This document shows, in pieces, positions 19,382 through 44,664 of a stretch of DNA of 64,000 nucleotides; position 1 is the stretch's first letter; the number at the start of each line of letters is the position of its first letter. The position numbers and the translations under genes were made by a program. Source of the DNA: Ascidiella aspersa. Lineage: Eukaryota. The notes beneath the pieces are model-generated. The model ran no database searches and was not told the DNA's origin. It was given only the letters and a program-made list of their open reading frames with translations. The DNA lies in the NCBI GenBank assembly GCA_963924565.1, contig OZ004610.1, positions 25,172,001 through 25,236,000 of the forward strand, read 5' to 3'.

Positions 19382-21221
19382 GTTTAAACAACACATTGTT
19401 AATGCGATAAAGGCTCGCGTATACAATATATTGCCCTAAAGAAGATATAAAACAGCCAAAATATTCTTGGTTGTAACTCAAAACTAAATTTGATACAATG
19501 TTACCTCAACGACAATTTTAAAAATATCACTACAGTTTTTGCTAATTTTGTAAACGATTTTTGTGCATTTTGTATTTGATTTTGACCAGCAAAAACATTT
19601 TTCGTACTATGACTAGCGTGGCGCTCGTTATGCAGTTTTAGCAACACTTTTAAATTTAAATAGAAATTTTAAATTACATGGTACGGTAACTTGAATAATA
19701 ACTTGTTGCTGCATCGTTTTCCCCAAATAATACTATCTTTGGCTATTAATTCATAGATTGAGGCGATTTGATTTCAGTCAAGAAAATAAGTATTCGCGTA
19801 TTATTAAGAACCAATAAAGATAACAAAGCCAAAGCATACATTTTCATGGGAACACACAATAATACCCAAAAAGCGGAAAAATCTACAAAAAGTATGAAGA
19901 CCAACGACATAATACAGCCAAATACGCAATAATATGCAGTACAAAATAAGATAGAAATCGTCTAAATGAGGCCTAAATCTGCAGAATACGTCCTAAATTA
20001 TTCCGAATAAGGTCAACATGGCCAAAATAACGCCTAAAACTGTAGCTAGGTAGAGGGACAGACGGCATTGGACGATCGGGGGCCGTCGGTATTGCATTAG
20101 CCGTTTTGGTGACGACGTTTGAACGCCCTAGTTTGACCGACGCCGTTAGGTTGCCGGCATCGGATTTTTAATTCTGTTTGGGGTTATTGTTGGGTAATGG
20201 GTGTGTTTAGAAAATGGGTTCGGGTTAAAATTAGGGGAGTTAGTGATGTATTTAACGATGGGGTTTGGAGTTGGGTAAAAAATTTTATATGTCTGATTCT
20301 GACCATTTAGGTTTGTTCAGACGGATTTGGTACCTATTTCGATTTAGACGGTGCTACAACCATTAGGCATTAGTCCTATTTGGGTGCTATTCCGACCTGA
20401 GTTTTATTCCGACTTTAATGTTGTTCTTATATCAGTCTTATGGCTGGAGCCCATTTTTGTGGTATTAAAATGATTTGATAGAAATACCTATACTGGAAGA
20501 ATTACATTTAACTGGTTTTAACTAGTGCCCTATCGGAAATATCTGATAAAAATGTATTATAATCTAAATTTTTTTATGTTTTTTTTTCAGTCACTGAATA
20601 GTTACTTGGAGATCAGTTGTTCGCTATCTAATAATATTAGTTTTTAAACAGATCAAGATTTGATTTTTTTATAAATAGTGAAAAAGCACGTTATAATTAC
20701 ACACTATGGTTGAGTAACTTAGTAAACTAAGTGGTCTACGAACTCGAATATTGTCTATAAGTTTAAAAAGTGTGCAATCGGCATTTAGGATTACATTTTA
20801 AGGGACTATACATAACAGTAAGTAACAATAATCTAATTTGACTTCATGTTGTAATAGGGATGGATAAAATTCACACAATTTGGCCATTAGGTCTTTTATG
20901 TATTTTGTATAGCACTTATAACTAATTTTTTTGGCGGCTAATTAATTTATTCAAATATATTATTAAAAACTGATATTGTTGCAATATGAGAAAAAACAGA
21001 TAAAAGTACAATTTGACTGTTATTTAAGTTACAAGTCAAAGTTCATAAACGACATTATGAGGTCATGAATGCCATCAACCAATGATACCAAAAAATGGAA
21101 AAAAGTTATATTTCCTTTGGGAAATGCGATAGAGAAAGGAAAGCAATTTCGTGGAAATATTATACATTTCCCGTTAAAGTGTTATATTCTAACATTGCGG
21201 TTTTTACCATTTTGCATTAAA

Positions 21222-24036
21222 ATGGGTTTTTGGAGTGATTGCGGAGATATGATTGATTTGCGGAATTCTGTCCGCAGAAATGGGTGGAGTGACACTAGAT
21301 TTCAACAGGTAAGTAATAAATATGGATTACTTGCAGTGTTGTAATGACTTAAGTCAATGACTTGACTTAAGTGCACTTAAGTCACTGTTTTTAAATGACT
21401 TGACTTGACTTAAGTCTTTTGGACAAATGACTTGGGTTAAAATAAATTGTTTTAATTAAGCAATTATTTACAAAACTGCGTTATTTATACCAATCTTTGC
21501 ACATAAAAGAGTTTGCTTGTAATATGCTGCTTTTGTGTTATTTTTGACTTGAGTTTCTCATAATCATCGGAGGAGTTTTCCGGTTTTCATAATTTAAAGT
21601 TTTATTTTTTTGACAAGGGCTGGACTTGAAGTTGACTTGCTCTAATTATGACTTGACTGGGACTTGACTTGTTATTTATTCAAAAAGACTTGACTTGGAC
21701 TTAAGTTATTTTACGAATGACTTGACTGGGACTTAAGTTATTTCAAAATGACTTGTTTACAACACTGATTACTTGAGAGGTAGCATAGCCAATAATTATA
21801 GACTACAGATATATTTAGATTTACAATACAAATGTAGACTATATTCAAAGCCAGTTAATATAATAATTAATCTATAAATATCTTGTTCTGTAAAAAGTTG
21901 TATTAGGCTACGTTATTCAAGGAAATTTTTGTATAGCGCAATATTGCTGGTGCTTTTTGTAGGTGTTTTGTTGAATGTACATGATATTTAATGTTGTGAC
22001 GCTATATTTTGTTAATCGTAAACATTTCATGAAAATTTCACGTTTTCGGAAGCATCAGTGCGCAGTAAGATTCCAAACAATTGCTCAGATAAATGAAGAG
22101 TTTCAGTTATCTTTATTGCTTTACTTAGTAGTTGGTTAAAAAAATTCGTCCAATAAAATTTAAAATATTCCTCTTTAGATTGCTAGCGTCGTCATTGGTG
22201 CGTACATCACCTTGTTAGTGATCGTGGCGTCATCGGACCCAACTTTTGACTGTTTAAAGCAAATGATTTACAAAAGCGATCGAGATATTCCCCAGTTTGT
22301 CCGATCGGCGGCTCATCGACATGTGGTGTCTGGAGGTTACTGTTTCGTTTGCCAAGCATTTGTGTAAGTAATAGAAGTAACACCGTTATGTTGCCTGGAT
22401 TTTTGATTAAAAGTTACACTCTATTTCTTGAACCTACACTCTATTTCTTGAACAATTATATTTTGCTTTGGAACAATATTTTCCTAGACACAATGCAAAA
22501 CATTGCAATAACTGCAACAAGTGTATCCCTGGATTCGACCACCATTGCCCCTGGATCAATAACTGCATCGGTCGTCATAATCACAAGTAAATCGAAATGT
22601 ATATAGAATTAGTTTATAAAACACTTCCAAAAAACGAAAAGGGGAATGTTGAAACTTAAATATACGAAGCACCTGTTTAAATTTAGGGGGGTTTACTAAC
22701 AAAACAAAAAAACGCACTAGCCTATATAGTTTTAATAAACAATGTAGCATATTCTTATTTTCAATGTTGATTTGTATCATATTTTTTTAAGGACCTTCTA
22801 TGGCCTAATGATTTTATGGCTAACCGCCAAAATTTTAATGCTTCCATCTTGTATCTTTGTCTTCATCAACAGTTTTCTTAAAAAGAACATACTGGCATCA
22901 GGTAAAAACTAAGTAAAATACTGATATAGCCTCCGTTCGATGTAAAATATTTTTTGCAACTATAGTTCAAAATTGTTTTTTGATGATTAGTAAAGATTTT
23001 AATACATATCAACAGATTTCTATTGGATGACCTTTGAAAGATGTCTCACTGTACAAATCATATTGGGATTCAAGATCGCCTTTCTCTTGTTGGTAACTGG
23101 TTACCTCGTATGCATTGTCAAGTTCCATAGATTTTTACGTAAGTTTTTGTTTTGTTCGGCCGATAAAAATACTGTTTTGCATATTCTAAAAATGTTATGT
23201 TTTTATTTGGCAATGGTTGCTTAATATCCAACAGTTAAAAGTAATATCCATTTCGACAAGCGCAAAAATCAGAATATGCAATTCGGCAAGCGCCATTTGC
23301 GCTTTCGTTTTGCTTAAACCGTATCTTAAGCAACGCCTAATTTTATTTGTAAAACTGTTTCAGAATATAGTAAAGTGTTCGCAATACGTTTCAAGGTAAA
23401 CTGAATATGTAAACAGAAGATATCTCCTCGCCCCTCGCCCTATATTACTTTTCATGGTTGTTGCAATTTTGTTGTAAAGGTTTGCCAGACAATAAAGATA
23501 TTTACTTTTTCCGTTTAACACTAAGAATATTTAAATCTATTTTATAACGGCACAGGTTAAATAAATTTATTGGTTTTTTTTCAGTCAGGGAAAACCTCAC
23601 CACCTACCGAGTAAACAAGACATTGGGAAATCATGACGAATATGTGGATGACGTTGAAGAGGGTGGTGCAAATCCCCAGCCGGTAACAGACTTAGCCAAG
23701 ATGCGTTTGGTAGGGAGAACCTGCACCACTTACCGAGTAAACAAGACATTGGGAAATCAGGACGAATATGTGGATGACGTTGAAGAGGGTGGTGCAAATC
23801 CCCAGCCGGTAACAGACTTAGCCGAGATGCGTTTGGGAGCGAAAATGTGCTTCCTCTTTATTCTAAAGGCCACCGCCATCAATTATCTGGAACAGCTGAC
23901 CGATCTGACCATTGCTTTCTCAGGTGCTTACATTTCGCTTTTCTGTGTTTATTTATTGGGAATTGTTTCACGCAGAGTATTTGCTTATTGTGAAACCGAC
24001 ATAGAACTATTAAGTGATATTGGATCTGGCAAATAA
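21222..24036 (+). CDS. ZDHHC1: DHHC palmitoyltransferase, ZDHHC1/ZDHHC11-like
   Basis: Exons 21222-21308, 22179-22363, 22488-22586, 22792-22901, 23016-23138, 23585-24036, in frame with GT-AG. Motifs: RRNGWS (ZDHHC1/11 N-terminus), SSDP, YCFVC...[44 protein letters not shown]. Choice between ZDHHC1 and ZDHHC11 and the exact C-terminus are uncertain. Confidence 0.88.
21334..21767. mobile_element. hAT-type MITE with GACTT subterminal arrays, in DHHC intron 1
   Basis: 11-bp TIR CAGTGTTGTAA / TTACAACACTG; perfect 8-bp TSD ATTACTTG; absent from the paralogous site at ~47830. Confidence 0.92.
23587..23836 (+). repeat. 126-bp (42-codon) in-frame tandem duplication in the DHHC last exon
   Basis: [11 protein letters not shown](H/Q)[21 protein letters not shown](K/E)MRL occurs twice; unit starts at 23598 and 23724. 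Confidence 0.95.
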
Positions 24037-25467
24037 TTCCGACAGATTAAGTTCGCTGTATCCAGCCAATTAGTGAACGCAAATGAAATTTTCCGAGATT
24101 TTATTTAAGAAGATACTCTAGCCTTGTTTAAATGATAAATTTCTATACGTTTGCAGTTACGCGGCAGTTTACGAGATTCTTCAAAGAGAAGTGCTACCGT
24201 GTCAAGTCCCTCAACACAGATGTGAATGTTTAGTTTTCGATTTCACTCGAATAGCTCGAACTTTCCCTTCTCACCTGCGTTTGGTCCTGCAATTATTCTT
24301 ACCTGTTGGTTATTGGATCGGGCAACAATTCGACTTTAAGTGAAGGTGTGCGATCTTGCTGAGCATTCTAAATCAACACTTTTAAACTTTCTTCTGCCCA
24401 ACGAGATGCGCAACAAGTACTGTTACTTTTGGGCCCATGCTATTTTAGTTACGTAATTATTTAGAATGGTTCATGGATCTTTAACGTAAAAACTTTGCGC
24501 TTAAATAAATTGTAAAACAGTTTTCGATTTATCGCTATAATTTCTCATTTTTTTACGGATTTGCAATATTTTATGTCCCGTGGTCAATCGCGGTTCTTCG
24601 GATTTGTATACTTTTCTACTTTAAAATATATTTTTTAAATACAATTGTAGATTCTGCTCTGAATGAATTGCGCAGTGGAAGTATTTAGCATAACATTTTT
24701 GCACATATTCCAAAATCTGCTACTAATTCCAACAAGCTTAATTTTCAGTACATTTTAAACTTTTAACCGCGATAGGTTGTGAAACATACGTGATGCTAAA
24801 CTAAACATAATATTTGAAAAAAATAATTGAATGATTAAAAACACACAGCAGAGCTCACTTTTAGTAGTGTTAGACCTGGTTCTCGGCTTATTGATCTTGC
24901 CATGGTCTTAAAAAATATAAAAATGATGTTGTCGCCACAATTTTCACGAAAACAAGTTGCTTTAATAAATTATACTCTGTAAAGTTATTGCGATTTCCGT
25001 GATTGGTGAAACAATAAAATTAAGACGAGGTTTATTCGTTATATACGCAAGCAATAACTTACAGCTCAGTCTGGTTTGTTTTGTTTTAAAACTAATTGAT
25101 GCTTAATATCCATTTAAATGACTACCTTGATATTACAAGTTTCTAACGGAGAGCTAACCGCAAACTTAGTCTAATATCTTAGTTTAAAGTTCGATTTATT
25201 ATGTCAAAGAGAGATTGTAACTGTACGGTAGGACTGCAATAATATTTCATTTGCAGAAAGAGGGGCTTTACCTTAAACCCCGTTTAGCCGATCTGTTGGG
25301 ATTTTTATCAATTAAGCACGAACCAAAAGCGAGAAGGTTTTGTTTGGGTTTTATGACAACAAAATAGAACAAACGACGACAAAACACATGCTATACATTA
25401 ATACGCCAAATAATAGAAAAACAGAACATAACATAAGCAAGGAATGAAAAGGGGCAAATGGCGCTTA

Positions 25468-25757: not shown

Positions 25758-27404
25758 CACTGTAAACTGAAAAGGTGGATTTTAAAGGGGTGGAAATATT
25801 CCACCCCCGCCAGGGGGGTGGAATGACTTGTTTTCGTCCCTAAAAGGCAATTAATTTCGATTTATACCCCAGCTTTAGATGTATGAAAGGTGGGATTTTA
25901 TTTTTACACCCCAACGCTAGGTTAGAAATTATTTTAAACCTTAAAAGGTGATTTTAAAGGGGTGGTGTTTTCCAAAAATACCCCTGTCACTGATTTAGCG
26001 TTGGGTTAGATTTGGTTTTCCACCCACCTAGTAGTTACATCTTTAGTTTAGAAATTTAACACCTGTGTTATTGGGTTATATTATGTTAACCACCCAGCTC
26101 GATAATTACTTGTTTTTTTTTTACAGTTGACTTTACTGAAAATAGATAAGAGTGAGACAACTATATCCTTATTGTTGTGTTGAAAAGTACGGCATTCCAA
26201 GACTGAAACGAATATGTTGTCTTCGAGAATTGCATATAAGTTTAAAAAAATGACAAACCAAATTCGTGATAAACTATGAATGACTCCACATAGCTTGTAC
26301 AGTTCTTAGAATACAACGTAATTTGCGGTAATAAGAATGTTAGGCTGTTCACCAGGTGATTAAAATGAACCAATCAGAGGAAACGTATCGGCAGTTAGTT
26401 ATCCGCAAGAATAAATTGTAAATATTCATCCGCATAAATATTTTAGGGAAAAGATTCATTAAATATATTAATACATAATTGTATATCTATTAAATGTATT
26501 TATTGTTTTTAATTCAATACAGCCAAACTCAGTGTTAGTTTCAGTTATAATTTATTTTTGTATTGACGATTCGACCACATAAAAATTTATCATGTGGTCT
26601 GCGCATAGGACTTCTGCGCATAGGACTTCTGCGCAAATGACTTTTGCCCAGTAAGATTAGAGCGACTTTGTCACATGTTATTGTTAAGCAGGATGGTTAT
26701 AGAATGACTGTTTTTGCGCTGAATGATGGACCATGACAACAGTAAGTTTATCAGTATATACCTTAGGAAGTATTTTGTCTAGAGTTCGTGTTGTATATAT
26801 ATATTTTGTTTGCTATTATTATTAGCTTTTTTTGTAAGTTATTGATGTTAGCGGCGACGACGGCCGGGAAAAATGGCGTTCAAGTTGGCTTATGGTTACC
26901 CAACATACAATAATTAAAAACTGGTTGCCACAAAATCTTTGAGATGTGTTCGAAAAACCTTATTTTTGATGCTGGTCTAGAATCCCAATACAACGAACAT
27001 TATTTTGGTTAGGGTTTCTGTTTGGGTGAGGTCAAATATTAATATTTAATAGTATTGCTTAACCTACCCAAGCCCAAATCTTCGAAATTAGTTGTTCAGC
27101 TTAACTTGTGTGTTTATTAATTGCCATTAAAAAACAATTTTTGGCGCTGGTCTTTGAATCATACCACAAATCACATTATTTTGGAAAATGGAGTTAATTA
27201 GTATGCGGGTTATTTGGGTTTAGGTTAAGTATTATTATTATATTTGTTCTTACATATTTCTGCCTTCCTTGCAGTTTCAACTTTGACATGTCGTTTTGTT
27301 AGTATTAACATAAATGTGCCAGGTTCTAGACCAGCGCCATGAATTTTTTTGAAAAGTCTCAAAATTGTTCATAAAACTGTTGCAACCCTGTGAAAGCTAT
27401 AGAG

Positions 27405-28205
27405 CGGTCATGTTCAAATGGCGGATCGCGCTCCGGTTCCGGATCTTTTCAGTGTTTTGTGCGGATCTTCTAATGTACTCCTAAAAAAATAAACTTTCTA
27501 CAGTGTTTTCATGTGACTACCAATTGTCAGTGTTAATGAATTTTAAAAAAAATCAAGCATAGAACGAAACTCCCAAATGCTAATCTTTGTGAGCGTTTAA
27601 AGATATCAGTCAGCCACAGAAAGCCCCAATTCGATGTTATTGTAAGACCTAAATTCAAAACAGGGGTTGGCAACATACGACCCGTGGGCCGGATGCGCCC
27701 GCCAATGTGATTAATTCGGCCCGCTGCCTCTTTGACAAACTAGATACGAGTCCATTTCAAATACTTTTTGACTATTTTAACTTGTAAGTGCGGAAAATTT
27801 TCCCGCTTCGCGCGAATCATCTTTCTGCGTCCGCCCTGTTTACGTTTTGATGCGGTCTTTTGAACTAGATCAGCGCTTCATTGCCGTTAATGGAAAGCGC
27901 ATTAAAAAATGTTGGACATATATTTTTTCACATTTTGTATTTTCGGTAATGTAATAAAAACTTTCAAGAAATTTAAAAGAAATGCTGGTATACCTAAAAA
28001 AATCGCGCTCGCCACCTGTGCCCTGACTTACAAAGTTTAACAAACACTAAACAAGATTAATTATTAAACTTATCGCATTTACATAAATAAAGCACCATAA
28101 AAATTAAAGTGTGTCCGATATGTTTACTATTCGTATTTGGTGGATCATCATGTTGTCAGGTTTGGCTGTGGTGGATCATGGCAAAAATCATTTTGAACAT
28201 CCCTG
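27405..28205. mobile_element. Degenerate hAT-like element nested in the EnSpm 5' region (second hAT end at 27661)
   Basis: Ends CGGTCATGTTCAAA / TTTGAACATCCCTG; TSD-like CTATAGAG / CTACAGAC. Confidence 0.55.
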
Positions 28206-28793
28206 CTACAGACATCCCCCTGCATTCTAAGCATAGGATATTTTGTCATTTTAATTTTTGGGTGCTGGTTTAAAGTCCCACCACTTTTTTGGTCACCAAA
28301 ATTTAAATTGCACACTTAAAATAAATTTAATTACACTCATCATACAAACCCTAACCCAAATGATATGTGCTAATTTAATAATTGTTTGAAATGTAGTAGG
28401 ATTCTAGACCAGTGCCAATATTTTTCGGGGTTAGATCTAATCCTTAAGTTAGCTGGAGCGCCAGCATTTGGGAATTGACATGACACATGACATAAAAATT
28501 GTCATATTAGTTTCTTCTAGGTTCTTGTCTGATGTAACACCTTATATAGTCTTTACTTTGTTTCTTTAATGTAGGGCCTTATTAAAACAACTATTTGCTG
28601 TACAAATCTTAAAAATGATTTATGTTCATTAAAGCGAGAATTTAGTGCTTTGACTAAAACAGTCTATTAGTAAATTAATTTCAAAGATATTTTACAAACT
28701 TTTTTTCTTTTAATTTGCCCTATGTATTTTTCTTAGTTTGAAGTGATTGTATAAATAAAAAAAAAAAGTGAAATTAGGGTTGCCTTTTTAAAA

Positions 28794-31166
28794 ATGACTA
28801 CAGAATTTATTTGTTCGTGTGTTAACTGCAATTCATTAAAGAACGATTTAAAGACCTTTCTTTATTACTTAAGGCATGAACACAATGATGATGACCTTTC
28901 TAATATTCAATGTCCAGTTGATAACTGTGGAAAGTCATGCTCATCATACCACTCCATAAGGATTCATTTTTACAGATATCACAGGGAACTTCTGGATGTA
29001 AGACATTTTGCACCACAAACTTCCAGTTTTGATAACACTCTTGCTGTTTCTGAAGAATTACCACTTCAAGAATCAAATAAATATAATGACCCTTTTCAAA
29101 AACAGTTTTTTCTGCACTACCTTAAGTGCCGCGAAAAATATGTTCTTCCAATATCTGTGTCAAAAAGCATTATGTCAGACACAATTTCCTTACTAGAACA
29201 GTACAATGAATATTTAATAAATAAAGAGCAACATTTGCCCAGAATTTATTTAACAGATAATACTCCAAAACTTATTTGGAACAAGATATGTAGTGAAAGT
29301 GTTTATACAAGGTTTTGTGAATCCATGGGAATGGTCAAGCCAAAACAAGTACAGTTAGATTCAACAAGTCATTTTCATTATGTTCCAATGTTAAACACAA
29401 TAAAAAATTATCTTTCACATTGTGATGTGGCTGACAGCATTGGAAGAACTCAGGAATGTCATGATAAACTTATCTCCAATTACATAAGTGGTACTGCATT
29501 CGTTGCAAATGAATTTTTTAAGGGTAGAAAGAACTTAATTCGAATACATCTTTACTGTGACGACTTAGAAGTGTGTAATCCTCTTGGTTCATCTCGAACC
29601 ATTCATAAACTGACATGTTTTTATTTTACTATTGGAAATGTTGAACAAAAATATTTGTCTGCATTGAGAAACATTCACTTACTACTTGTAACCTATTCTT
29701 CGCATGTTAAAAAGTTTGGATATGATGTTATTTTAAAACCATTTAGCTTAGATATGGAAATATTGGAAAGGGATGGTGTAACAGTAAGTGTAAAAGATGG
29801 TCGACAGTTACATTTGTATGGTGGAATTGCCACAATATCTGGCGATAACCTAGGTCTTCACGATATTGGTGGTTTCCGACGCTGTTTTTCCAGTGGAAGA
29901 ATTTGTCGCCACTGTATGTGTTCTTATCCTGATCTTTTGAATAAACCACATGAATGTATGTTTACTTTACGTGATGCAAATACTCACAAATGGCATGTAG
30001 AAAGCATTAAGAAAGATGCATCATTAGTTTGTGTGTATGGCGTTAGGTCGTCTCCCGTTTTTGGAACTCTGCTTTCGTTTGATGTAATTAACTGTCTTCC
30101 TCCTGATATTATGCATGATGTTTTGGAAGGGGTTATTCCAATAACAGTTGAGATTATAATTAACCAACTTCATAAACGCAATGTATTGTCAAGATCACAT
30201 CTGATAAAGCTTGTTAAAGGTTTTAAGTTTGGAAAAAATGATCAAAAAAATAGACCTGTTGCCTGGATTGCGGGTAATTCCACATCTCTAAATGCACATG
30301 AAGCTTGGTGTCTGTTCAGAGTATTGTCTTTTATCATTGGTGGAAAAGTTCCCCATGATTGTCAAGTCTGGGAGCTCTACAAACTATTATCTCTGATTTG
30401 CGAAATAATTTTTTCTCCGGAAATAGAATCCGAATGGATAAATTTGCTAGATGTTTATGTTCATGACTTTTATGCTCTTGTAATACAGTTGGAATCTTCT
30501 CAGATAAAACCAAAGTTTCACTATATGCTACACTACCCCAGGTTATTGGTAAGGTATGGTCCTTTGCGCCATTTATGGTCAATGAGATTTGAATCTTTTC
30601 ATCAACGCTTAAAAAAAGTTGTTAGGCAGTCCTGTAATTTTAAAAATATAACCCTTACAATTGCTCAACGAATACAAGGTCTAAAGTGTTGGGAACACAG
30701 AAATAAGTGCTGCTTACTTGAGGACTGCTTAATACCTGATCAAACATCTGAAACCTTCAAGGAATTTAATTTAAATACTTTACCCCTCTCTGTGATTCAA
30801 AAACTTGTAAACTTATTTGGTAATTTGAACAAATTATCATGTCATTGTGTTTCAAGTTTACTTTATAATTGTTACCTGTACAAAATTGGAGATACATTTG
30901 TTGTTGACATTGTGTGTGATATACCTGTTTTTTTTAAAGTGACTTCAATACTGCTAATTGAGGACGTACATTTTTTATTCTGTCAAATATTTGAAGTTCG
31001 ACATTTTGATGATCATTACCATGCATATTGTCTTTATGCTAGAAGTATGTTTTGGCATGTCATACGAGTTGGTAAAGAATTAAGTTCTGCAACTGATGTT
31101 TATGAAATTAATAATCTTATTTATGTTAAACTAAAATTCCTGCCTACTAAGTTAAAAAAGCCTTAA
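28794..31166 (+). CDS. EnSpm/CACTA-type DDE transposase, 790 aa, intronless, with N-terminal C2H2 zinc finger
   Basis: CPVDNCGKSCSSYHSIRIHFYRYH zinc finger; LYCDDLEVCNPLGS..HKL; SGDNLGLHDIGGF...CRHC; DIMHDVLEG; KPKFHYMLHYP...YGPLRHLWSMRFESFH, motifs typical of animal CMC-EnSpm transposases; lies between CACTG TIRs. Confidence 0.92.
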   Translation: MTTEFICSCVNCNSLKNDLKTFLYYLRHEHNDDDLSNIQCPVDNCGKSCSSYHSIRIHFYRYHRELLDVRHFAPQTSSFDNTLAVSEELPLQESNKYNDPFQKQFFLHYLKCREKYVLPISVSKSIMSDTISLLEQYNEYLINKEQHLPRIYLTDNTPKLIWNKICSESVYTRFCESMGMVKPKQVQLDSTSHFHYVPMLNTIKNYLSHCDVADSIGRTQECHDKLISNYISGTAFVANEFFKGRKNLIRIHLYCDDLEVCNPLGSSRTIHKLTCFYFTIGNVEQKYLSALRNIHLLLVTYSSHVKKFGYDVILKPFSLDMEILERDGVTVSVKDGRQLHLYGGIATISGDNLGLHDIGGFRRCFSSGRICRHCMCSYPDLLNKPHECMFTLRDANTHKWHVESIKKDASLVCVYGVRSSPVFGTLLSFDVINCLPPDIMHDVLEGVIPITVEIIINQLHKRNVLSRSHLIKLVKGFKFGKNDQKNRPVAWIAGNSTSLNAHEAWCLFRVLSFIIGGKVPHDCQVWELYKLLSLICEIIFSPEIESEWINLLDVYVHDFYALVIQLESSQIKPKFHYMLHYPRLLVRYGPLRHLWSMRFESFHQRLKKVVRQSCNFKNITLTIAQRIQGLKCWEHRNKCCLLEDCLIPDQTSETFKEFNLNTLPLSVIQKLVNLFGNLNKLSCHCVSSLLYNCYLYKIGDTFVVDIVCDIPVFFKVTSILLIEDVHFLFCQIFEVRHFDDHYHAYCLYARSMFWHVIRVGKELSSATDVYEINNLIYVKLKFLPTKLKKP

Positions 31167-31227
31167 ATATATTTTTAAAGGATTGTAATTTATAGAATTT
31201 CTAATTGTAAACTATATAAGTGAAAAC

Positions 31228-34200
31228 ATGGCATGTTCCTATCATGTAACCTATGAAAATTCAAAAAAAATTTTAAATGTAAATTGTCCTGAAAAAATTT
31301 ATGATGAAGTAACTCTAGTGTTTGGAGTTACCAAGTTTGATCTCCAATCCTATGCACCAGAATTTGATGACTGGGTGGATTTCGATAAATGCATCACCAC
31401 TGGTAGACTAAAAGTTGTTTGTCAGGATAATTCAAATCACATACTGGCAAATATTAATTCGTCACCCAATTCATCAATGAATAGCAGCGCTACCACTGTT
31501 GAGTATGATGGCAGTGAAAGAGAAGAATCAATTAAATGCAGCACTTCTGATAGTTCTGATGATGAACACAAAATTAATTGTTTAAAACCAAAGGTTTGGC
31601 CAGTGGTGTATAACATCCCCACATTTCCCAAAACTCTATCTGCAGAGTTGTCAACAATTGAAAATGACAAACAGCTCTATGTTGGAGGAAAAATTAGAAG
31701 AAAAATAATTTCTATTATTTTTGATGACCTATGCAGCTATACCGAGTAAGTACAATGTATTTCCCTATATATTTTTATTTTTAGTGCGATATTTAGTTAT
31801 AGTCTGTGGATAAAAAGCAAGGTAATTTTTTAGTGGTAACTAATTAAGTTAAATAAAATTAGTATGAATAACACAATGGGCATTGTGTCTTTGCTAATTA
31901 AAACTGTACATCTTTACTTTAATGCAGTGGTTCCAAACCTGTTTTTAAGGTGACCCATTTTGAAAAAAAAATTAGTTTGGTATTATCTTGCGACTTAAGC
32001 AATTGTCATATTATCATACAAGATTGCATTGCAAACAAACTGCGCTACAAAGCACTTACTTTTTCCGAAAAGAATATGTTTATCAAATCACTGATGAGAT
32101 AGCTTTGCTTGCTTGATGTCAGCGATTTGTTGAAATCGAGGGATTATTTTGCTTAAGCATATAGACCCATGTCACTGTTAACTTCCAGCCGGTTTCCCTG
32201 ATTGGTTTTCATATTTTTGTGTTTATAAATTCCAGTTTTGTGATCTCTTCACGTTTTGAATTTTTTGTTGTTATTTTTTCGCCCAAGATACATAATGGCT
32301 GAAAAACATTCGACCCCAAAAAATAATCAGGCGACCCAACGTTGGGTCGCGACCCATGTGTTTGGAACCACTGCTTTAATGTATGAAAAACTCTATTTTA
32401 TGTTTCTTTACAAGAAAATATAAGCAGTGAGATTTTATCGCAAATATTGTGCATGTACATCACATGACCAAGCTGAAAGTTGCAAAAATCTATCATACTG
32501 TAGGGGTGGGGTCAGATTAATGAGTCTTCATTTATATAATTGCCAAGATGAATCGACCACACTCCTACAAGATTTGAGATGGCCTGTCTTCGTGAGGCCA
32601 TTCAAGTCCAATTCTTTCCTTTAGTTCAGATACATGAACAGTCAATTTTTGCTGTCTTCAGTCAAAGCTGTAAAAGCCTCTCTCTGCACAAGGCAGTACT
32701 GGGTGATACTGGTTGATACTGTTTTTTATTCGATTGTGCGACTATACTTATTGGCGAAAATATTTCTAAAATGCACAGGAAATATTGACGTAGATATTCT
32801 TACGATTTTCAATAATAAATCACGTGACAACAAGGCGTGGTCTAAACCTTTTTCTCTCGACTCTTATAGACGGAAATAATATTTTTGTCCCAATATGGCT
32901 TGAACAAAAGTAACAAGGCATTCGTTGCAAACTCTAGCAAGAGATATCGGCAATCGAATTTAAACAAAAACTTTCATGACGCAACATTAAGGCGATAAAA
33001 CAAAGAATTAATTTGATGTGCTGACGTGTTGCGACAAATACTCCCTTTGCAAAGGTTTTGCAGTCATTTCGAATATATAGGAATGACATTATTTTCCAAT
33101 TGTTTTCGTGTGTTGTGTTTCAGCTGTTGTGAAATGCTTATGGAGCATTGGACGCGAAATTGTCCGATCATTTAACGCATTTGCGCAATTGTTTTTGGTT
33201 CGATTCCTGATTCCTCGAGAAAATTTTCGTTTGTGCCTGAACTGGCAAGGAGGATTTTGATGTCAGCGTTCGCTGGTTGCTTGAAATGTGTTTCATCGAC
33301 ACGCCAGAGCAGTTTGCTGTGGCTTTTTGCTTTTCAGGAAATCTGTGCGGCTTGCAGGAGAAAATCCCTGCACGGTGCGTTGCAATTCTGACGCCACCAG
33401 GAAGCCGTTGTTTTTGCGCGTTGCATCTCGATCTATCGCTTTGTCCAACGCTTGTTGTGTTTGTTTTCTGAAATTTCAAAATATTTTTCCGGCAGATGTG
33501 TGTTCGAAATTATCTGTAGCAACACTCAGTATTCAAGTTATTTATATTTTGGTTATAGACACACATATTTTCTATACTTATATATATATATATAGGCGCG
33601 ACAGGTTACACTTAAAGTTTGAGACAATTAATTACTGGAATATATATTTACTCACGTTACACATCTTTTGCGATTCAATACAAAATTAAATTCTATTGAT
33701 TTTTTACATTGAGCAACATTTCCTTAAAAATTTGCATTTTTTTTAGTTTGCACAATTCGTTCAATGTAAGTTTTAAAATAACGACGCATCACAAGAAAAT
33801 ACGCTTTGAAGTTGCTGCTTATTCACTATTGCTTTCAACAAAAGGCAGGAAATGGGGTGTTCCTAAAGTTGTGATTTGAAAGCTAATGTTTCGCGTGTGG
33901 ATAAATCATTATGCTTGATACGAGATGTTTAAACTCGTGTGTAAACGCGGCTGCGTGATGAGAGAAAAACAGACAAAAACCCAAAACGTACCAAATGTTT
34001 AAAAGAATTCGGAAATTTAACACGAAATTATTTTGTGCACAACAAAATTAAGTCGTGATTCACAAGTTTAACGCGTTGATTTCAAACTATTGAGCTCCAA
34101 GCACAAAAATTAAGCTCTTTTAACATTTATCAAAAGATCGTGCGATCGACGTTTAAGCTTAGACTTCATAGATATAGACTATACATAATTTGCGAAATGC

Positions 34201-37200
34201 GATACATAATGGTTTAATAAAAAGTCGCATTAAAACAATTTACAGACCTTTCAGTCGATATTTTTACTCATTATATATATAATTTTGTTTTTTTGTTTTT
34301 AAATGTATAATAGATTTTTCACCTGATAAACTAGGCAGAATCAGTTATTGTGAAATCCATAATTCCGTTTCGTTTTCCATGATTCCAAACAGTGGTGATG
34401 TCTTTATCGGCAACGCTTGTTTGTATTTCGTGTTTCGAATTCCAAGCAAATGCTTTGCTGACGCTATGGAGCGTCTCTTCACGTATCTTTCGATGAGATT
34501 AATTTCTTCTAAAGCTGGCTTCTTGCAAGTTCCAAACATGACAGTTTTTAGGCGGCCGTTTGTAGGTGGTCCATACAGATTTAGGCACATATTTTTTCTT
34601 TGAGCTTCGTTTCTTCAGTCTTCTTGGGAAAGTAGTTTGCAGGTGGTTCGTTCCTCACTCGCGGGCATCAATTTTGAGGAGGTGTGGGTCCGGATTAATG
34701 AGTCTTCATTTATATAATTGCCAAGATGAATCGACCACACTCCTACAAGATTTGAGATGGCCTGTCTTCGTGAGGCCATTCAGGTCCAATTCTTTCCTTT
34801 AGTTCAGATACATGAACAGTCAATTTTTGCTGTCTTCAGTCAAAGCTGTAAAAGCCTCTCTCTGCACAAGGCAGTACTGGGTGATACTGGTTGATACTGT
34901 TTTTTATTCGATTGTGCGACTATACTTATTGGCGAAAATATTTCTAAAATGCACAGGAAATATTGACATAGATATTCTTACGATTTTCAATAATAAATCA
35001 CGTGACAACAAGGCGTGGTCTAAACCTTTTTCTCTCGACTCTTATAGACGGAAATAATATTTTTGTCCCAATATGGCTTGAACAAAAGTAACAAGGCATT
35101 CGTTGCAAACTCTAGCAAGAGATATCGGCAATCGAATTTAAACAAAAACTTTCATGACGCAACATTAAGGCGATAAAACAAAGAATTAATTTGATGTGCT
35201 GACGTGTTGCGACAATACCTTATTTTAGGCAATGTAGGGTATGTCATCAAGACTAAAGTTTTGACAAATGTATACCATTCTGTTTACGTAAGTTTGAGTT
35301 ATGATGGTTTTTATATTAGGGCCTAACTTTCCTTTTTATTCATTGACAAATACGATGTACTAAAAAAACAACCCTTTTTGCTTGTTTCTGCATTTGTTAA
35401 GTTTATATAACAGAAATTTATTCTTTAGATATCCTTCATCATATCAATATAGAGAAGTCTGCAGTGCTTTAGTTCGCAAGTATCCAGTGCTTAGAGACAG
35501 ATTTTCTAACACAGGCTGTTATTTTGTAAGTTAACGTTTTTATTTATCAGTTTACAGCTACTTAAAGGCAGCTAAAATAGCCTAATAAAGTAGCCTGTAC
35601 AGTGTAACTCAGGTGTCGGGAACCCCTGTCATGCATGCCAAAAGTGGCATGCGGGATGATTTTTTAGGGTACGCTAAAGGGCAAGAGTATTGTGTTCGTG
35701 ACAGTTCGTTTTTTTTTTCCAAGGTTAGGGTATCTTTACAAAATTTAACTTATGAAATTAGATTTAATGGCATCTCCCAAGTTCTGTAAATTAGATTTCA
35801 GTTAACAGCAAGGCTGCGGAGTTGGACATAAGACTAGGTAAAATTACCGGAGAATAGCATATGGTGAAATGTTTTCCATGACTCCTATAAGTTGAGTGCC
35901 GACATCTATTCTATTTTAGTAAGTAAATCTGGGAAAAAACAGGCTGTAGAGTCTTAGCTGTACTCGGGACTCGATGTAATTGCACATTTGGCCGGAGTCA
36001 GACTCGGGTTGTTTTTAACAGACTGCACAGCCCTGGTTGCCAGTGCAAAACCAAAAATAGAAAAATGTTTGGCATGCGAGTTGTTGATATTTTGAAATTA
36101 TTTATAAACTGACACACTACATACAAAAGGTTGCCGACCCCTGGTGTACATCATAATCTTAGTTTATTTATAATATTTTGTATGAATATAGGTTACTTGG
36201 ATTAAGATGTTGCGAACAAAATTCAAAGATTGGCGTCGAAATTCAATTAACAATAAATATAGAGAAGAAATGAAAAAAAAATTTGGTCACCAAAATAGAA
36301 AAAGGAGCAGCATACCAGATGAAGAAGCTGAAATAGTCAGCAAAAAACGAAATGTCAGCACCAGCAGAAATGTAAAGAAATTTTGTTTTTCTGCAGTTAA
36401 TGTTATTTATATTTTCATTATTATTACAAAGGTTGGCTAAAGTTAGCCGTCAGGAAATTGATATGTCAGACTGGAATACTTTTTTATTATCTTTACTATA
36501 GCTCAAAATTTTTGAAAGTTTGTATGTGTTGTTTTTGGGTGCAAACTAGTATATATAATATATATTTTTTGTTTATAGCAGGATATTGCTGATACAGAGG
36601 ACGAATTTGGGACCAAAATACATGTTGATTACCTCAAAAAAGAATTTTTAAAGAAAGAACCTTGTCAACAGTCCATTGAAGATAGATTGGAGCGAACGTA
36701 CAGTAGCAGACGAGCAGATGTTTTAAGTGGTGGTTCAGCAAAAGAAATTTTAGAAAGATATTCACCCTTGACTACTTCTAAATGGGTGTGTATGTTTATA
36801 ATGAGCAATTCTGTATTTAACTTGAGTTGTATTGTTGATTTTTTCCACAATATATCTATTTATGATGTAAATCTTTTAGGAATTGTCAATAGTAAAACAT
36901 GATTTTGAATTATCTATGGTTTAATTACTTATTTGTAACAGTTATTTTTTTATAAAGATTCTGTTTGAAATGGGCAAAATAGTTGGAATGAACATAGATC
37001 AACGACTGAGAGAGCCACTTTTGTCAAAAGCCAAACGAATGATTCGATGGTCTAGCATCTCTAATTCCTACATGGATATTTTAGGTAAGTATATAAAAAT
37101 TTTGCTAGAATCAGGTCCACAGGTTTCAGTACGACAAAATAGTAAGATAAGGGTCATAATGTTTATGTGTTTTTGTGAAATTTATTTGTAGAACTACAAT

Positions 37201-39155
37201 TTACTCTACCCAGTTTAAATGCATGCTACATTGCTACATTCTGATGTGGTAAAATTTAAGGACTGTAAAGGTAGTTTAAACCATTTCATAGCTGCACTCA
37301 AAGCCAAGCAGCCAACAGATAGATAAATAACTAAAGAAACTCAGTCCTATTTATGAAAAAAAAATTTACTTTTTAGAAATGGAAAACGCATGGATTCTTT
37401 TTTTGCCAAGTATATTTAAAGAGAATCTGGATCATTTTTTTATCATTGAAAAGGTAATGTTGTGGAATATAATTATAACAACATTAAACATTTACAATGA
37501 GCTTCACATAGGAGTCAAGAACTAATTATAGCTCCATTAATTAGTGCACTGGCCGATTTGGCCCGCAAAGTTCCAATTTTTTGACCCGCGAACTGATACT
37601 CTGCTTTGCTGTAATCTAGCACTATCGATTTTTGTTTTTTTGGTATTGTAATTGACCAAAAAACTTCGTAAATGATCCTCTGTGATTTCATAACTACCGT
37701 AGCTTTTTTTCATAAGGTTAGTATATATGCCATAGGCCAGCAGTTGTTGACCTGGTGGGCCTAGGATGGGCGCAAGCTCCAAGTTAATATTTAAATTTTT
37801 TTGCATTGATTCTAATGGTTTCGTTTAGGTTTTACACCACTCCTACAGCGGTGTAGGCTACAAAGTCTGTTTTTGCCAATACATTGAAACAGCAATTTTT
37901 TTCATGGTTCCCGAGACCGACAAAACCCTTACTATTTTCAAGTTGTCGTAGTGATATTTAATTGAAAATGCCGAATTGCTTTTTGTAGGGTGGCGAAAGG
38001 CATAGGAAAATTACCAAAGCGGGCGCGGCTGAAAAAACTTTTAAGAACGACTGTAATAGGCTATGTATCATTTGCAAGCAATAAGCCTAAGAATTGCTAC
38101 TTAAAAACATTGGCCCGCAAGATAAAAAAAATATTGTTTTTGGCCCGCGATGAAAAGAAGTTGGACCACGCTGAACTAGGGTATCAGTAAAGTTAGGCTA
38201 TTGTAAGATTTAAAATAGTGACCTTTGCCATATACTTAAACCATTATCTCTCCAAACGTAGAAACAATGTTGGTTTGACCCTTACATGAAATCTTAGGCC
38301 ATATGGTTTCAGTTAGCCACCCTAGGCTTCCGTTGTAAGGATTGGTACAAATTCTGTAAATCTTGAAAAAAGCCAATTTTCTTTTTTTAAAACTATTTCA
38401 TGTTTAACTTTATGTTTTTTAAACAAATGTTGTGTTGACCATAGCATTTTTAAAATTGTTTTCGAATAATATGTAAGTTTTGTCAACCAGTCCTTTTTAA
38501 ACTATAAAAATATCTTTAAATTTGTTTCATAAAAATGTGTGGCAGCCCTGCACGTAAGATTAATATTTGTGCCATTATCGTATGCATGTTTAAAGGCCAG
38601 AGTACACATAAACAAATTGTTTATTTGCCTAGTTGAGTGATAGAGACTTTTATTTTCTTTTTGCGGAACCTTTATATTTCGGTTAATGAAGCAAAGATCT
38701 AAATATGGACGACATCTTTTTTTCAATTTTTTGGCATACTGTCCTTATCTTGCCTTGATTACAAGGAAGGCGACTAATGTTAGCAAGATTTTCATAATTT
38801 TTTTCATTGTTTTTTATATTATGTCTTATTATTGTTGGTCAGTATTACTGTAGATGACCAAACCACAATAATAATTTTTGCTTATTTTTAACTTTCATAG
38901 GAGTCTACATCACCGTATCCGGTAATAAAAATTTGCAGTGATCAATCAATTTCTGCGCATGTAGATGCTTCTACTATATCTGTAGATGGAGACTTAATCA
39001 CTGCAGTAGCTACGGCTATTTCAGCATATTGGGTTTTTAATATTGTTATACCACATGGCTGTACAAAAACAATGGCTTTTTTATGTGGTTACATACTGCA
39101 GCTTGGCGGCGTTAAAATTCCAAGCAGTGTTTTACAGGTCATAAACAGTTTGTAG
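31228..39155 (+). CDS. EnSpm second (accessory) protein, SAMD3-like, ~486 aa, 7 exons
   Basis: Exons 31228-31745, 35429-35525, 36192-36371, 36579-36785, 36958-37084, 37377-37453, 38901-39155 (1461 nt, no stops, GT-AG). Motifs: LQSYAPEFDDWVD; YPSSYQYREVCSALVRKYPVLRD...WIKMLRTKFKDWRR; RTYSSRR...EILERY; LPSIFKE; AYWVFNIVIP...TMAFL. These resemble SAMD3-like proteins linked to animal EnSpm elements. Confidence 0.85.
31925..32373. mobile_element. hAT MITE nested in EnSpm ORF2 intron 1
   Basis: TIRs CAGTGGTTCCAAAC / GTTTGGAACCACTG; perfect 8-bp TSD CTTTAATG. Confidence 0.92.
32499..35214 (-). mobile_element. Non-autonomous LTR retroelement (~2.7 kb) nested in EnSpm ORF2 intron 1
   Basis: Direct repeats 32499-33036 and 34675-35214 with TG...CA termini; 4-bp TSD ATAC (32495-98, 35215-18). 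Minus-strand PBS-like TGATGCCCGCGAGTGAGGAACGAACC (34670-34645) resembles the complement of an elongator tRNA-Met 3' end. PPT-like AAAGGGAG at 33048-33041. No gag/pol ORF recognised. Confidence 0.88.
35610..36143. mobile_element. hAT MITE in EnSpm ORF2 intron 2, with a second MITE nested at ~35809-36034
   Basis: Ends CAGGTGTCGGGAACC / GGTTGCCGACCCCTG; TSD-like GTGTAACT / GTGTACAT. Confidence 0.7.
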
Positions 39156-39819
39156 TTTTGTAACAAAGTATATGCCAATTATCACCTTTAAAAGTTCATT
39201 CCTTAGTAAGCATATGATTAATGTTTACTTTGATTTAATTTAAATGTATTATAACTACATAAACATATTTTTGCATAGCTTCAGTAAAAGTTCTTTTCTA
39301 AACTTTTAATTTCAAAAGTTGTAGTGTTATATGTTTCCCTTTAGACCCACATTATTAGCTTTTTTCGTTTGATACTGTTGTAAAACAATATATTTTCAAC
39401 TGCTACATGTATGTTTCTATTTGTTAAATTAACCTTCGGAATAACCATCTCAGCCAAAATTCTGTGACATGTTGTTTTCAGATCTGTTCTATTTTGTTGT
39501 TAAAACTTTCTTTTCTGCAATGTTTTTTTGACACCCAAACAATATGTTATGTTAGTTTTTGGATGTTTAGAAAGAGTTTAGATTTGAACCCTGATTAAGA
39601 GTGTTGTCATCATGTTAACTATTTGTTCTTTATTTTTGCGTTTCAACTTTTTTGGAATTCTGCCATGTTTTGGTAATGTTGTAAAATATACTATACATTG
39701 TTTATGTCATTAGTATGTGTGATTATACAATTGGTGGATTGTTAAATCCACCCTGAGGTGGAAATGCGAAAATCCACAATGGTTTGTGGTGTTTTACAAT
39801 GGGGAAGATTTTCTTAAAT

Positions 39820-40189
39820 CAAGGTGGATTCGTACAATTCCTTTCCCTTCGGGGTGGATTAACATAGGGTGTAAACAGCCCTATCCGCCCTAAAGGTTAG
39901 AACGTTAAATCCACCTTTGGGTGGTTTACGGAAAATAGAACCCATGGGCATAAAAATTGATCCACTAGCGAAGGTAGAAATTTCCACCTTTTCAGTTAGC
40001 AGTGCAGGGTGGATTCGTACAATTCCTCCCCCGTTGGGGTGGATTAACATAGGGTGTAAACAGCGTTATCCGCCCTGAAGGTTAGAACGTTATATCCACC
40101 TTAGGGTGGGTTACGGAAAATAGAACCCAGGGGCATAAAAATTGATCCACTAGCGAAGGTAGAAATTTCCACCTTTTCAGTTTACAGTG
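39820..40189 (+). repeat. 185-bp tandem duplication of the EnSpm right terminus, including the TIR
   Basis: 39820-40004 and 40005-40189 are closely similar; the inner copy ends CAGTTAGCAGTG (mutated TIR), the outer ends CAGTTTACAGTG. Confidence 0.92.
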
Positions 40190-43707: not shown

Positions 43708-44664
43708 ATGCTGAAAGGCAACGTGTTCGGTAATTTTTCTCGACTAGGTCCACCCGAATTATTCGCAGCAGCGCAGGTCTTAAACGTTATTGAAATTATC
43801 GGCCTGATTTGGCTCGTCAGCAGCTTCGTGGTTTACGGAATACGCAGCGGAAAATGGAAAAAGGCTGGGAACTCTTCGGAAGAGTTGAAGGTCAACCATC
43901 GACCGATTTACTTTGTCAGCCTTTCAACGCTTGTTTTCGGCCTAATAGGTTTGGTTTCTGACCAAGTTGTTCTCAACATAGAACATGGCGTTGGGCAAGA
44001 GGCTTACTGCAAGATTGCCACCATTTTTGGCATTATTTGTTTGCTATATTTCTTTTTATGTTATTACTTGCTTTTATGGCTGAGACTCCATTACCTGTAT
44101 GCGAATATATCCATTATACAGGACATCAGCCCGCTGTTGAAAATTTTCAAATGGCTGATGCTGTTGTTGTACCTTTTTAGTTCCTTCGCGATTCAGTTTT
44201 TTTACGCGTACGTTCATGCGACCGAAGATTCTGGAACTGGCTGTACCGACGACGGCCCGGTTTTGGTTCCCCGTTGGCCGGTGTATTTGCTGGTCAGTGT
44301 AATGTGGGTGGCACGGGCAACGTTGATTTTCCAGTTTCTCTTTCCGCTGCGCTCTCATTTGCGAGGCAGACACGCGAAAGAGATTTTGCGGATCGCCAAA
44401 CGTTTAGCAGCGATCACATCTTGCGGTTTAGTTTTCGACTTGGCTGTTTTGTTGGTCATAAAGTTGCATCGTGACGAAGCGGCGCATCTTTTCATCTTAA
44501 TTTTCGGTATCGACGTGTGTCTCCACGTGCTCTTCGTTGTGCTCTCTTTTGAAAATTGGACGGAAGTAGTCGCTTTGAGCAACTGGGTCAAAAGAACCCG
44601 CCCGCGCGACTCTGGCCCTGCGCAAGCTGCTACAGTTGAAGCAGTAAGCACGACGAACATTTAA
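43708..44664 (+). CDS. Intronless seven-transmembrane GPCR-like protein, 318 aa
   Basis: Single ORF with about 7 hydrophobic segments; Cys before TM3 (AYCK) and in ECL2 (GTGCT); LLWLRLHYLY at the end of TM3; no canonical DRY/NPxxY. Confidence 0.85.
   Translation: MLKGNVFGNFSRLGPPELFAAAQVLNVIEIIGLIWLVSSFVVYGIRSGKWKKAGNSSEELKVNHRPIYFVSLSTLVFGLIGLVSDQVVLNIEHGVGQEAYCKIATIFGIICLLYFFLCYYLLLWLRLHYLYANISIIQDISPLLKIFKWLMLLLYLFSSFAIQFFYAYVHATEDSGTGCTDDGPVLVPRWPVYLLVSVMWVARATLIFQFLFPLRSHLRGRHAKEILRIAKRLAAITSCGLVFDLAVLLVIKLHRDEAAHLFILIFGIDVCLHVLFVVLSFENWTEVVALSNWVKRTRPRDSGPAQAATVEAVSTTNI

Follow-up and report, generated by a model that had tools for sequence, protein, structure and literature searches.

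Differing U5 tips in a pair of nearly identical LTRs from Ascidiella aspersa

In the textbook account the two LTRs of one insertion are identical end to end at birth, and LTR identity at insertion underlies both LTR-based dating and LTR-finding software. A 64,000-nucleotide stretch of the Ascidiella aspersa genome (termed the window) carries an LTR element whose present copy departs from this identity by five edits at the U5 tips. The difference may date from birth, and the locus raises the question of how two such tips could have come to stand in one element.

A non-autonomous element within a DNA transposon

The element is a non-coding sequence of 2,716 bp on the minus strand (positions 35214–32499, Table 1) with TG...CA ends and a 4-bp TSD. 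Re-analysis returned the same coordinates (32499..35214) and letters as the original prediction. The features of integrase-type LTR retrotransposons are present, i.e. TG...CA direct repeats, a TSD, an imperfect PBS and a PPT, and the spacers are symmetric, with 4 nt on the PPT side and 4 nt on the PBS side. The TSD length is within the 4–6 bp given for this type in the available text of PMC12440569. Judged from its letters, the TATAAA/AATGAA pair is a putative TATA-like or weak poly(A)-signal-like motif; two such PAS-like hexamers are found in 120 of 4,266 30-nt tiles (2.8%).

Table 1. Coordinates of the LTR element, its parts and the enclosing transposon
Feature	Positions	Strand	Description
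EnSpm/CACTA-like DNA transposon enclosing the element	25758..40189	+	perfect 22-bp TIRs, 2-bp TSD
Transposase of the enclosing transposon	28794..31166	.	intact, 790 aa
TSD, left copy	32495..32498	.	4 bp, identical to 35215–35218
Downstream (3′) LTR	32499..33036	-	538 nt, TG...CA in element sense
Outer U5 tip	32499..32514	-	16 nt; end joined to host DNA; terminates in ACA
Overlapping TATAAA/AATGAA hexamers	32527..32536, again 34705..34714	-	28–32 nt before outer end
Arm in 3′ LTR	32551..32569	-	19 nt, inverted copy of tip; loop of 32 nt to outer tip
AATAAA	32725..32730, again 34903..34908	-	canonical; LTR position 307; likely poly(A) signal
Internal region	33037..34674	-	1,638 nt; longest stop-to-stop frame 134 aa; no gag/pol match
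PPT-to-U3 spacer	33037..33040	-	4 nt
Short polypurine tract	33041..33048	-	8 purines
PBS-like tract	34645..34670	-	complementary to tRNA 3′ end through T-loop; starts TGA
Inner-CA-to-PBS spacer	34671..34674	-	4 nt, A-rich
Upstream (5′) LTR	34675..35214	-	540 nt, TG...CA in element sense
Inner U5 tip	34675..34692	-	18 nt; 5 edits from outer tip; terminates in TCA
Arm in 5′ LTR	34729..34747	-	19 nt, identical to 32551–32569
Second predicted hairpin	34757..34779	-	7-bp core stem, just upstream of arm; present in both LTRs
TSD, right copy	35215..35218	.	4 bp, identical to 32495–32498

Frames of at least 40 aa that overlap the element number 35, the longest being 134 aa. Eighteen translated stretches of the element (some overlapping) were scanned against Pfam and none reached the curated cut-off. 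The internal frames showed no significant PDB match and were below threshold in the Atlas, and host-gene homologue searches gave no matches. The phmmer match of an 81-aa frame is to one 6,328-aa protein with 14 short stretches; it looks repeat-inflated, and the protein is perhaps a vertebrate giant protein. Rfam searches of positions 32300–35400 yielded seven matches, all below the gathering score. By its absence of gag/pol capacity the element is a non-autonomous LTR element, and because no coding capacity was found a helper is required. Neither other family copies nor an autonomous partner are found elsewhere in the window (word size 7, E ≤ 1), and an exact 26-nt match is absent from the bacterial/archaeal genome contigs, which were searched to allow for contamination of the host. 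The tip analysis thus concerns one copy of the element.

An intact EnSpm-like transposon, which was not part of the original prediction, surrounds the element; the best named relatives of a neighbouring transposase are from Ciona (36%–37%). This nesting limits how old the LTR insertion can be. If the transposase is assumed not to be under selection in place, its frame would stay free of stop codons with a probability of 0.0016 at a neutral substitution of 5% and of 2.5e-6 at 10%. The LTR insertion is young.

The U5 tips, the arm and the PBS

The ungapped LTR core displays exactly two substitutions in 522 nt and no indels (sites 32605/34783 and 32790/34968), as was predicted for about 520 bp. 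The core identity is 99.6%, and at the U3 end the two LTRs agree down to the final base. The 18-nt inner tip and the 16-nt outer tip differ by five edits, with four single-base indels and one substitution in the best alignments, and here too the predicted difference by several indels holds. Five of the seven LTR differences are in the last 18 of 540 nt (P ~8e-7 with edits taken as independent, P = 0.006 when the tip edits count as two events). The similarity of the tips is matched by 204 of 20,000 shuffles, and by 708 of 20,000 with CA fixed; on their sequences, outer and inner tips are homologous. The tip edits form a genuine cluster, and age does not account for it. No description of tip-limited LTR differences was found in the literature searched.

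Each LTR carries a 19-nt inverted copy of the tip, an arm that had not been noted before, and loop and arm are identical in both LTRs. In pairing with the arm, both tips exceed all 232 background tiles, and the outer tip pairs better than the inner. The outer tip is three edits from a perfect match to the arm and the inner tip five; the duplex energies are −20.2 and −16.5 kcal/mol and the hairpin z values −2.85 and −0.76, respectively. With the U3 start, the outer tip forms a terminal inverted repeat of 3 bp and the inner tip one of 2 bp. By these measures the outer tip looks like the functional end. When the inner tip was corrupted at random, it came to match the arm as well as the outer tip does in 578 of 20,000 trials (edit distance) or 1,989 of 20,000 (energy). 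On these counts the outer tip is unlikely to have arisen as a damaged form of the inner tip. Relative to the other, each tip both gains and loses arm-pairing bases, and at two places the inner tip holds an arm-pairing base that is absent from the outer tip (alignment by eye). Arm-templated (quasi-palindrome) correction of one tip as the sole cause was rejected on these mutual gains and losses. Self-priming from a 3′-terminal hairpin was also rejected, since it would invert the 32-nt loop, yet loop and arm are identical in both LTRs.

A tRNA-3′-end-like motif (T-loop to NCA) matches positions 34645–34670 on the right strand, 4 nt from the inner CA. The motif occurs four times in the window against 1.4 expected, and it is the position, not the count, that is the evidence. 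This bears out an earlier observation that the PBS starts with TGA rather than TGG and extends into T-loop-like sequence. Two further departures are newly noted: the tract is one base longer than the standard geometry, and it has a mismatch at the conserved T-loop A. Each of the 113 tRNA genes that overlie the pattern carries 3 nt at the point where there are 4 in the window. The scan covered four of 64 parts of the collection and gave 122 loci (nine without a tRNA call); these were bacterial tRNAs, mostly Leu with no Met, and inform on geometry only. ARAGORN found no tRNA gene in the window, and the PBS alone gave no match in Rfam.

With one bulge allowed, the PBS shows two mismatches to both Met_CAU 12-mers and to three entries listed as “others” (compared by eye). 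A Met primer is plausible, but it is tied with three other tRNA ends in the checked list. Best-match PBS sequences that start with TGA, each with two mismatches, are also listed for the intact elements Clep_8 and Pdep_2 (PMC13524379, available parts); thus a TGA start need not mean that the PBS is impaired. Together, the five tip edits and the PBS departures form one contiguous block of 48 nt (34645–34692).

In Tf1-type self-priming the leader is complementary to the element's own LTR over about 11 nt. Here the longest leader complement is 6 nt, in the lowest class among 45 control stretches, and this type of priming was rejected.

How the tips may have come to differ

The leading explanation, to which we assign a probability of roughly 0.4, is that the element is a PBS-impaired passenger and that a single round of reverse transcription drew its two U5 tips from two separate RNA templates. 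As part of the same tentative reading, the outer tip would come from a co-packaged RNA, and the inner tip and PBS would be read through from the element's own RNA. The PBS is off-pattern directly beside the inner tip, and the outer tip fits the arm and the U3 end better; both observations support two templates.

The proposed process would begin with the packaging of the element by an autonomous helper. As its own PBS would prime poorly, minus-strand strong-stop DNA would be synthesised on the RNA of a helper or sister packaged alongside, and would jump to the element's 3′ R, supplying the outer tip used by the integrase. The minus strand would then read through the element's own PBS, spacer and inner tip. 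Plus-strand transfer would take place via R-U5 homology, as in Ty1/Ty3. Lastly, the mispaired 3′ end of the plus strand would be trimmed away or corrected to the minus strand; over cycles the U5 body would be homogenised, and inner tip and PBS would drift together as a vestige. This last step is a pure assumption for which no precedent was found. It is needed because a plain heteroduplex would erase the tip difference in about half of the progeny per cycle.

For other steps there is precedent. According to the available text of PMC5371799, Ty1/Ty3 do not take over their PBS from the tRNA, and their plus strong-stop DNA pairs with R-U5 where the minus strand ends; the available text of PMC6894440 describes a first transfer that is intermolecular, between family members packaged together. 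The original prediction had proposed a non-canonical priming or transfer mechanism. A departure from the textbook retroviral route is still the best reading, but the known Ty1/Ty3 route already permits a tip difference. If the two-template explanation is true, the element is a parasite of a parasite that borrows its helper's proteins, primer and integrase end.

Alternatively, an element whose tips were alike at birth may have had its inner tip and PBS garbled by a single error-prone event, such as faulty completion of plus-strand transfer, gap repair upon integration or clustered repair at a later date. We consider this unlikely, and it ranks second. It needs no family-level mechanism, and all departures are within the one 48-nt block on the inner side. 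Random corruption of the outer tip keeps the arm similarity of the inner tip in 2,579 of 20,000 trials by edits and 4,542 of 20,000 by energy, i.e. inner-like tips arise in 13%–23% of trials. Because arm similarity is so often kept, a single lesion of the inner tip fits these figures equally, and they do not demonstrate constraint on the inner tip. A lesion would, however, have to make about 8–9 separate small changes in 48 nt and yet keep the CA and the symmetric 4-nt spacer. The inner tip also still pairs with the arm better than every background tile, and it has the two arm-pairing bases (aligned by eye) that the outer tip does not. One copy cannot show that the tip difference is systematic, and the one-off lesion fits too.

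The tips might also be inherited separately throughout a lineage, autonomous elements included, each tip being copied from its own RNA end. The RNA would have to extend to the last base of the 3′ LTR, and the DNA primed by the tRNA, when a few bases long, would jump from the CA plus A-rich spacer to the CA-poly(A) junction. This is doubtful. The spacer after the inner CA is indeed A-rich, like a poly(A) junction, the TATAAA/AATGAA hexamers are 28–32 nt before the end, and each tip keeps arm-pairing bases absent from the other. The canonical AATAAA, however, is 226 nt upstream of the LTR end, as expected if the RNA stops far before U5, and the two PAS-like hexamers are matched in 2.8% of tiles. 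In the table of PMC13524379 (BLAST-defined LTRs; four of 34 parts covered, with molluscs in part 31 and dipterans in part 12) the LTR self-match stops at least 7 nt before the PBS in seven of eight His-labelled mollusc rows, in contrast to two of 36 dipteran rows with a PBS; the value for the present element is 6–9. These gaps may be long spacers, the His subgroup was picked post hoc from related rows, and annelid rows in part 1 mostly have gaps of 0–5. It is similarly doubtful that an invertebrate Ty3/Gypsy-type lineage exists in which the tips are inherited separately, priming jumps almost immediately to the 3′ end of the RNA and the working end is marked by a hairpin of tip and arm, so that the LTRs are born non-identical, the mollusc gaps of 8–21 nt being the same trait in autonomous members.

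A sequencing or assembly error in this C/G-run-rich, hairpin-forming stretch at the LTR-internal junction is improbable: four of the five tip edits are single-base indels that adjoin short runs of G or C, where it is mostly the inner side that has the additional base, and the PBS likewise has one base too many, yet no indel occurs across the 522 aligned LTR bases, a 2,370-nt frame 1.3 kb away is open and the window contains no N. Most improbable is an old element with LTR cores recently homogenised by gene conversion and old divergence kept at the tip alone; the PBS and tip look 15%–25% diverged and the internal region is non-coding, but the element sits inside a DNA transposon whose 22-bp TIRs are perfect and whose 790-codon frame is open, and this argues against great age, as does the U3 end.

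If sister copies share the tip mismatch, it would bend the rule that LTRs are born identical. As a family trait it would cause tools to mis-bound elements and shift TSD and PBS calls by 6–20 nt. It would also be a natural marker of the template for each cDNA end, which can otherwise be seen only by means of engineered markers in yeast or retroviruses. If the difference is limited to this one copy, it is a curiosity of little interest.

Comparison with known systems

The element resembles Ty3/Gypsy-type non-autonomous elements in its LTRs of about 540 nt with TG...CA ends, 4-bp TSD, PBS, PPT and lack of pol. It differs from these in its tips, five edits apart beside cores of 99.6% identity, and in its off-pattern PBS; the superfamily is not fixable without an RT.

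A further precedent is the R-U5-mediated rescue of PBS-modified vectors in MLV, reportedly described by Mikkelsen et al. in 1998 (cited in PMC5874298). That system and the two-template explanation reportedly have in common that priming takes place on an RNA packaged alongside, that a defective PBS is read through and that transfer goes by R-U5. The MLV cases are engineered vectors with rare forced events, unlike a natural invertebrate family.

A likeness to lokiretroviruses, which reportedly have non-identical terminal repeats, had been suggested. It found no supporting text in the available parts of PMC7947760, PMC9040795, PMC8922424 and PMC12067270 or in wider searches, mostly outside subscription papers. 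The accessible portion of PMC7947760 describes vertebrate gag-pol-env elements, some complete copies of which have identical or nearly identical LTRs; the host here is an ascidian. A lokiretrovirus identity is not supported, as no gag, pol or F-like env frames are found between the LTRs; these could be lost in a deletion derivative. Troyka elements (CG...CG ends and a 3-bp TSD in the available text of PMC12440569) are ruled out by the TG...CA ends and 4-bp TSD.

In the His-primed F-env Ty3/gypsy elements of molluscs (PMC13524379, available parts), as here, the LTR self-match ends before the PBS, by 8–21 nt in seven of eight rows. Those elements are autonomous (gag-pol-env), several have a perfect PBS, and their gap may be either a spacer or a divergent tip.

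In the plus-strand primer recycling of Ty1/Ty3, as given in the available text of PMC5371799, the product is a repeated U3-R-U5 with no tip-limited difference described, and Ty3 primes with the initiator tRNA at a bipartite site. Shared with the two-template explanation are a PBS that is not reset from the tRNA and a 5′ U5 and 3′ U5 that can have separate templates (PMC5371799).

The LTR element and its unequal tips

The LTR element (35214–32499, minus strand; 2,716 bp, non-coding) is flanked on both sides by a 4-bp target-site duplication (TSD), and spacers of 4 nt are present at both inner LTR ends, on the PPT side and on the PBS side. The original prediction described nearly identical LTRs that differ at the U5 end, and re-alignment shows this description to be accurate. 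The first 522 nt align without gaps and differ at two positions, and the tips are 5 edits apart. The inner tip (U5 end of the upstream LTR, beside the PBS) has 18 nt and the outer tip (U5 end of the downstream LTR, beside the TSD) 16 nt; their best alignment displays four single-base indels and one substitution. Five of the seven LTR differences lie in the last 18 nt (P ~8e-7, differences being assumed independently scattered; P = 0.006 when the clustering is scored as two events). The tips are related, as equal closeness was found in only 204 of 20,000 shuffles. The tip difference is real in this sequence and non-random, with a single copy as basis; a search of the window yielded no second copy.

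Features of the LTR element and of the transposon that encloses it (window positions)
Feature	Position	Strand	Remarks
EnSpm/CACTA-like DNA transposon enclosing the element	25758–40189	+	perfect 22-bp TIRs, 2-bp TSD
Transposase of this transposon	28794–31166	+	790 aa, open frame
Second-gene fragments of this transposon	31228–31749, probably also 36579–36902
Downstream LTR	33036–32499	-	538 nt, TG...CA
Arm in downstream LTR	32551–32569	-	19 nt, inverted tip copy, 32 nt before tip
Antisense frame	33017–33175	+	ends in CX2CX6HX4C pattern, zinc-knuckle-like
Mostly AT-rich middle of internal region	34324–33471	-	donor-like and acceptor-like bounding sites on element strand, by eye
Internal frame	34348–34614	-	89 aa; family-assigned Atlas matches all in one clan, ricin-B-type lectin families, 0.75–0.76
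PBS-like tract	34645–34670	-	T-loop-to-NCA motif, 4 nt past inner CA
Arm in upstream LTR	34729–34747	-	identical to downstream arm, 32 nt before tip
Upstream LTR	35214–34675	-	540 nt, TG...CA

The interior is 1,638 nt long with a longest frame of 134 aa, and none of the interior frames tested gave a significant Pfam, PDB or Atlas match. The 89-aa frame may be a remnant of a lectin domain, with Atlas scores below threshold and no Pfam support; the antisense frame likewise has no Pfam or significant PDB support. The AT-rich middle may represent an intron or a subgenomic splice.

The enclosing transposon, which has a 185-bp tandem pair close to its right end, is apparently young. Its transposase has 79 relatives, the best named being from Ciona (36%–37% identity); a few others carry accessions that we take to be Transposase_21, DUF4218 or Plavaka. 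The Ciona relatives make an ascidian host likely. At 5% neutral substitution the 790-codon frame would be stop-free with P of 0.0016. This low probability indicates a young age for the nested LTR element; the ~25% tip divergence is thus not due to age.

Elsewhere in the window, exons of 3-beta-HSD/SDR-like genes, partly tandem-duplicated, are found at 279–617, 7324–7884 and in a 978-bp tandem pair (7633–9530). A single-frame hydrophobic ORF of 318 aa (43708–44664, plus strand) resembles a seven-helix receptor by eye, with no Pfam match and no homologue at E ≤ 0.001. Positions 20060–25447 and 46746–49833 form a dispersed duplication of several kb (82%–96% identity, first copy interrupted), and 57236–57332 is a MITE-like inverted repeat (36 bp, 97% complementarity, spacer of 25 nt).

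Tip-arm pairing and the primer-binding site

Each LTR carries an arm, i.e. an inverted copy of the tip. A perfect match to the arm would take 3 edits of the outer tip and 5 of the inner. Among 232 equal-length background tiles the best arm matches take 5 and 6 edits, thus both tips surpass all 232. RNA folding of the last 74–76 nt gives a z of -2.85 with the outer tip versus -0.76 with the inner, and the terminal inverted repeat with U3 is 3 bp versus 2 bp. By eye, a perfect 6-bp closing stem is present in the outer tip and absent from the inner; two arm-pairing bases are present in the inner tip and absent from the outer.

A pattern scan bears out a PBS that starts with TGA and extends into T-loop-like sequence. 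The motif has four matches in the window against 1.4 expected; the telling evidence is its position. The tract has 4 nt where 113 of 113 tRNA genes under the pattern have 3 (122 loci, nine lacking a tRNA call; the genes are bacterial, most of them Leu), and it is mismatched at the conserved T-loop A, a base that the search pattern itself required. This A is generally invariant in tRNAs. The mismatch, at 34652, is at what we take to be the site where m1A58 would be read, and may stem from read-through misincorporation. One 48-nt block takes in the tip edits as well as the departures in the PBS.

Compared by eye with the 12-nt tRNA ends in the sampled supplement of PMC13524379, the PBS shows one bulge and two mismatches in a tie of two Met_CAU and three unlabelled entries, so the Met isotype is unproven. 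The sampled table of that paper has two intact elements whose best-match PBS tracts start with TGA; thus TGA alone is no proof of an impaired PBS.

Possible origins of the tip difference

In the textbook scheme both LTRs end up identical, and a first transfer between co-packaged RNAs is possible (PMC6894440, in part). Neither Ty1 nor Ty3 takes its PBS from tRNA, and the plus strand, once transferred, pairs with R-U5 at the end of the minus strand (PMC5371799, in part). By this route, the priming RNA supplies the 3′ U5, and the read-through RNA the minus-strand PBS and 5′ U5.

The preferred reading, which is tentative (probability roughly 0.4), is that the element's own PBS primes poorly. A helper (a proposed autonomous partner supplying proteins) or a sister RNA would provide strong-stop DNA, hence an integrase-ready outer tip; read-through would carry along the element's own PBS and inner tip, which would then drift. 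Two templates would explain both the contiguous 48-nt block and the better-formed outer tip. The reading requires one unprecedented assumption: homogenisation must act on the U5 body, and at the tip the mispaired plus-strand end must lose. The non-canonical priming or strand transfer originally proposed stands insofar as this reading departs from the textbook scheme, but yeast and retroviral routes are already able to produce such a tip difference. Rescue of PBS-modified MLV vectors by way of R-U5 is, to judge by its title, the subject of one paper.

Next, though unlikely, comes a one-off lesion at the inner tip's side. When the outer tip is randomly edited, an inner-like product equally close to the arm results in 2,579 of 20,000 trials (edit distance) or 4,542 of 20,000 (energy), so such a lesion keeps some standing; the reverse direction gives 578 and 1,989 of 20,000. 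Corruption from inner to outer is less likely than from outer to inner.

Lineage-wide separate inheritance of the two tips is doubtful. TATAAA/AATGAA at 28–32 nt before the end (120 of 4,266 tiles contain two hexamers of this kind) and the A-rich spacer would fit an RNA that terminates at the tip; however, an ordinary R/U5 layout is favoured by a canonical AATAAA lying 226 nt from the end. In the sampled PMC13524379 table (parts 1, 12, 31 and 34 of 34, with row searches; ‘none’ rows excluded), the BLAST-defined LTR falls short of the PBS by at least 7 nt in 7 of 8 mollusc rows labelled His and in 13 of 27 PBS-bearing mollusc rows (part 31), and in 2 of 36 dipteran rows (part 12); annelid gaps (part 1) are mostly small. 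Measured likewise, the element itself scores 6 or 9. The His-labelled subgroup was chosen post hoc among related rows, and equal numbers would follow from a long spacer; the mollusc gaps are therefore a lead only, and one that keeps separate inheritance at its low standing.

Sequencing error is less likely still: the tip edits are mostly single-base indels adjoining G/C runs, typical of such errors, but the local sequence has no other indel.

Comparison with known systems

The non-identical terminal repeats of lokiretroviruses, invoked in the original prediction, were not found in the sampled texts of PMC7947760, PMC9040795, PMC8922424 and PMC12067270, or in a wider search of main texts, mostly outside subscription journals. 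Troyka was rejected as the identity of the element by comparison with PMC12440569 (in part), and Tf1-type self-priming was also rejected. The feature would gain in interest should unequal tips of this kind recur in family copies or in autonomous relatives. The element is a non-autonomous LTR element of the integrase type, and its ends are most like those of Ty3/Gypsy, a likeness drawn from the ends only of a copy that has no RT.
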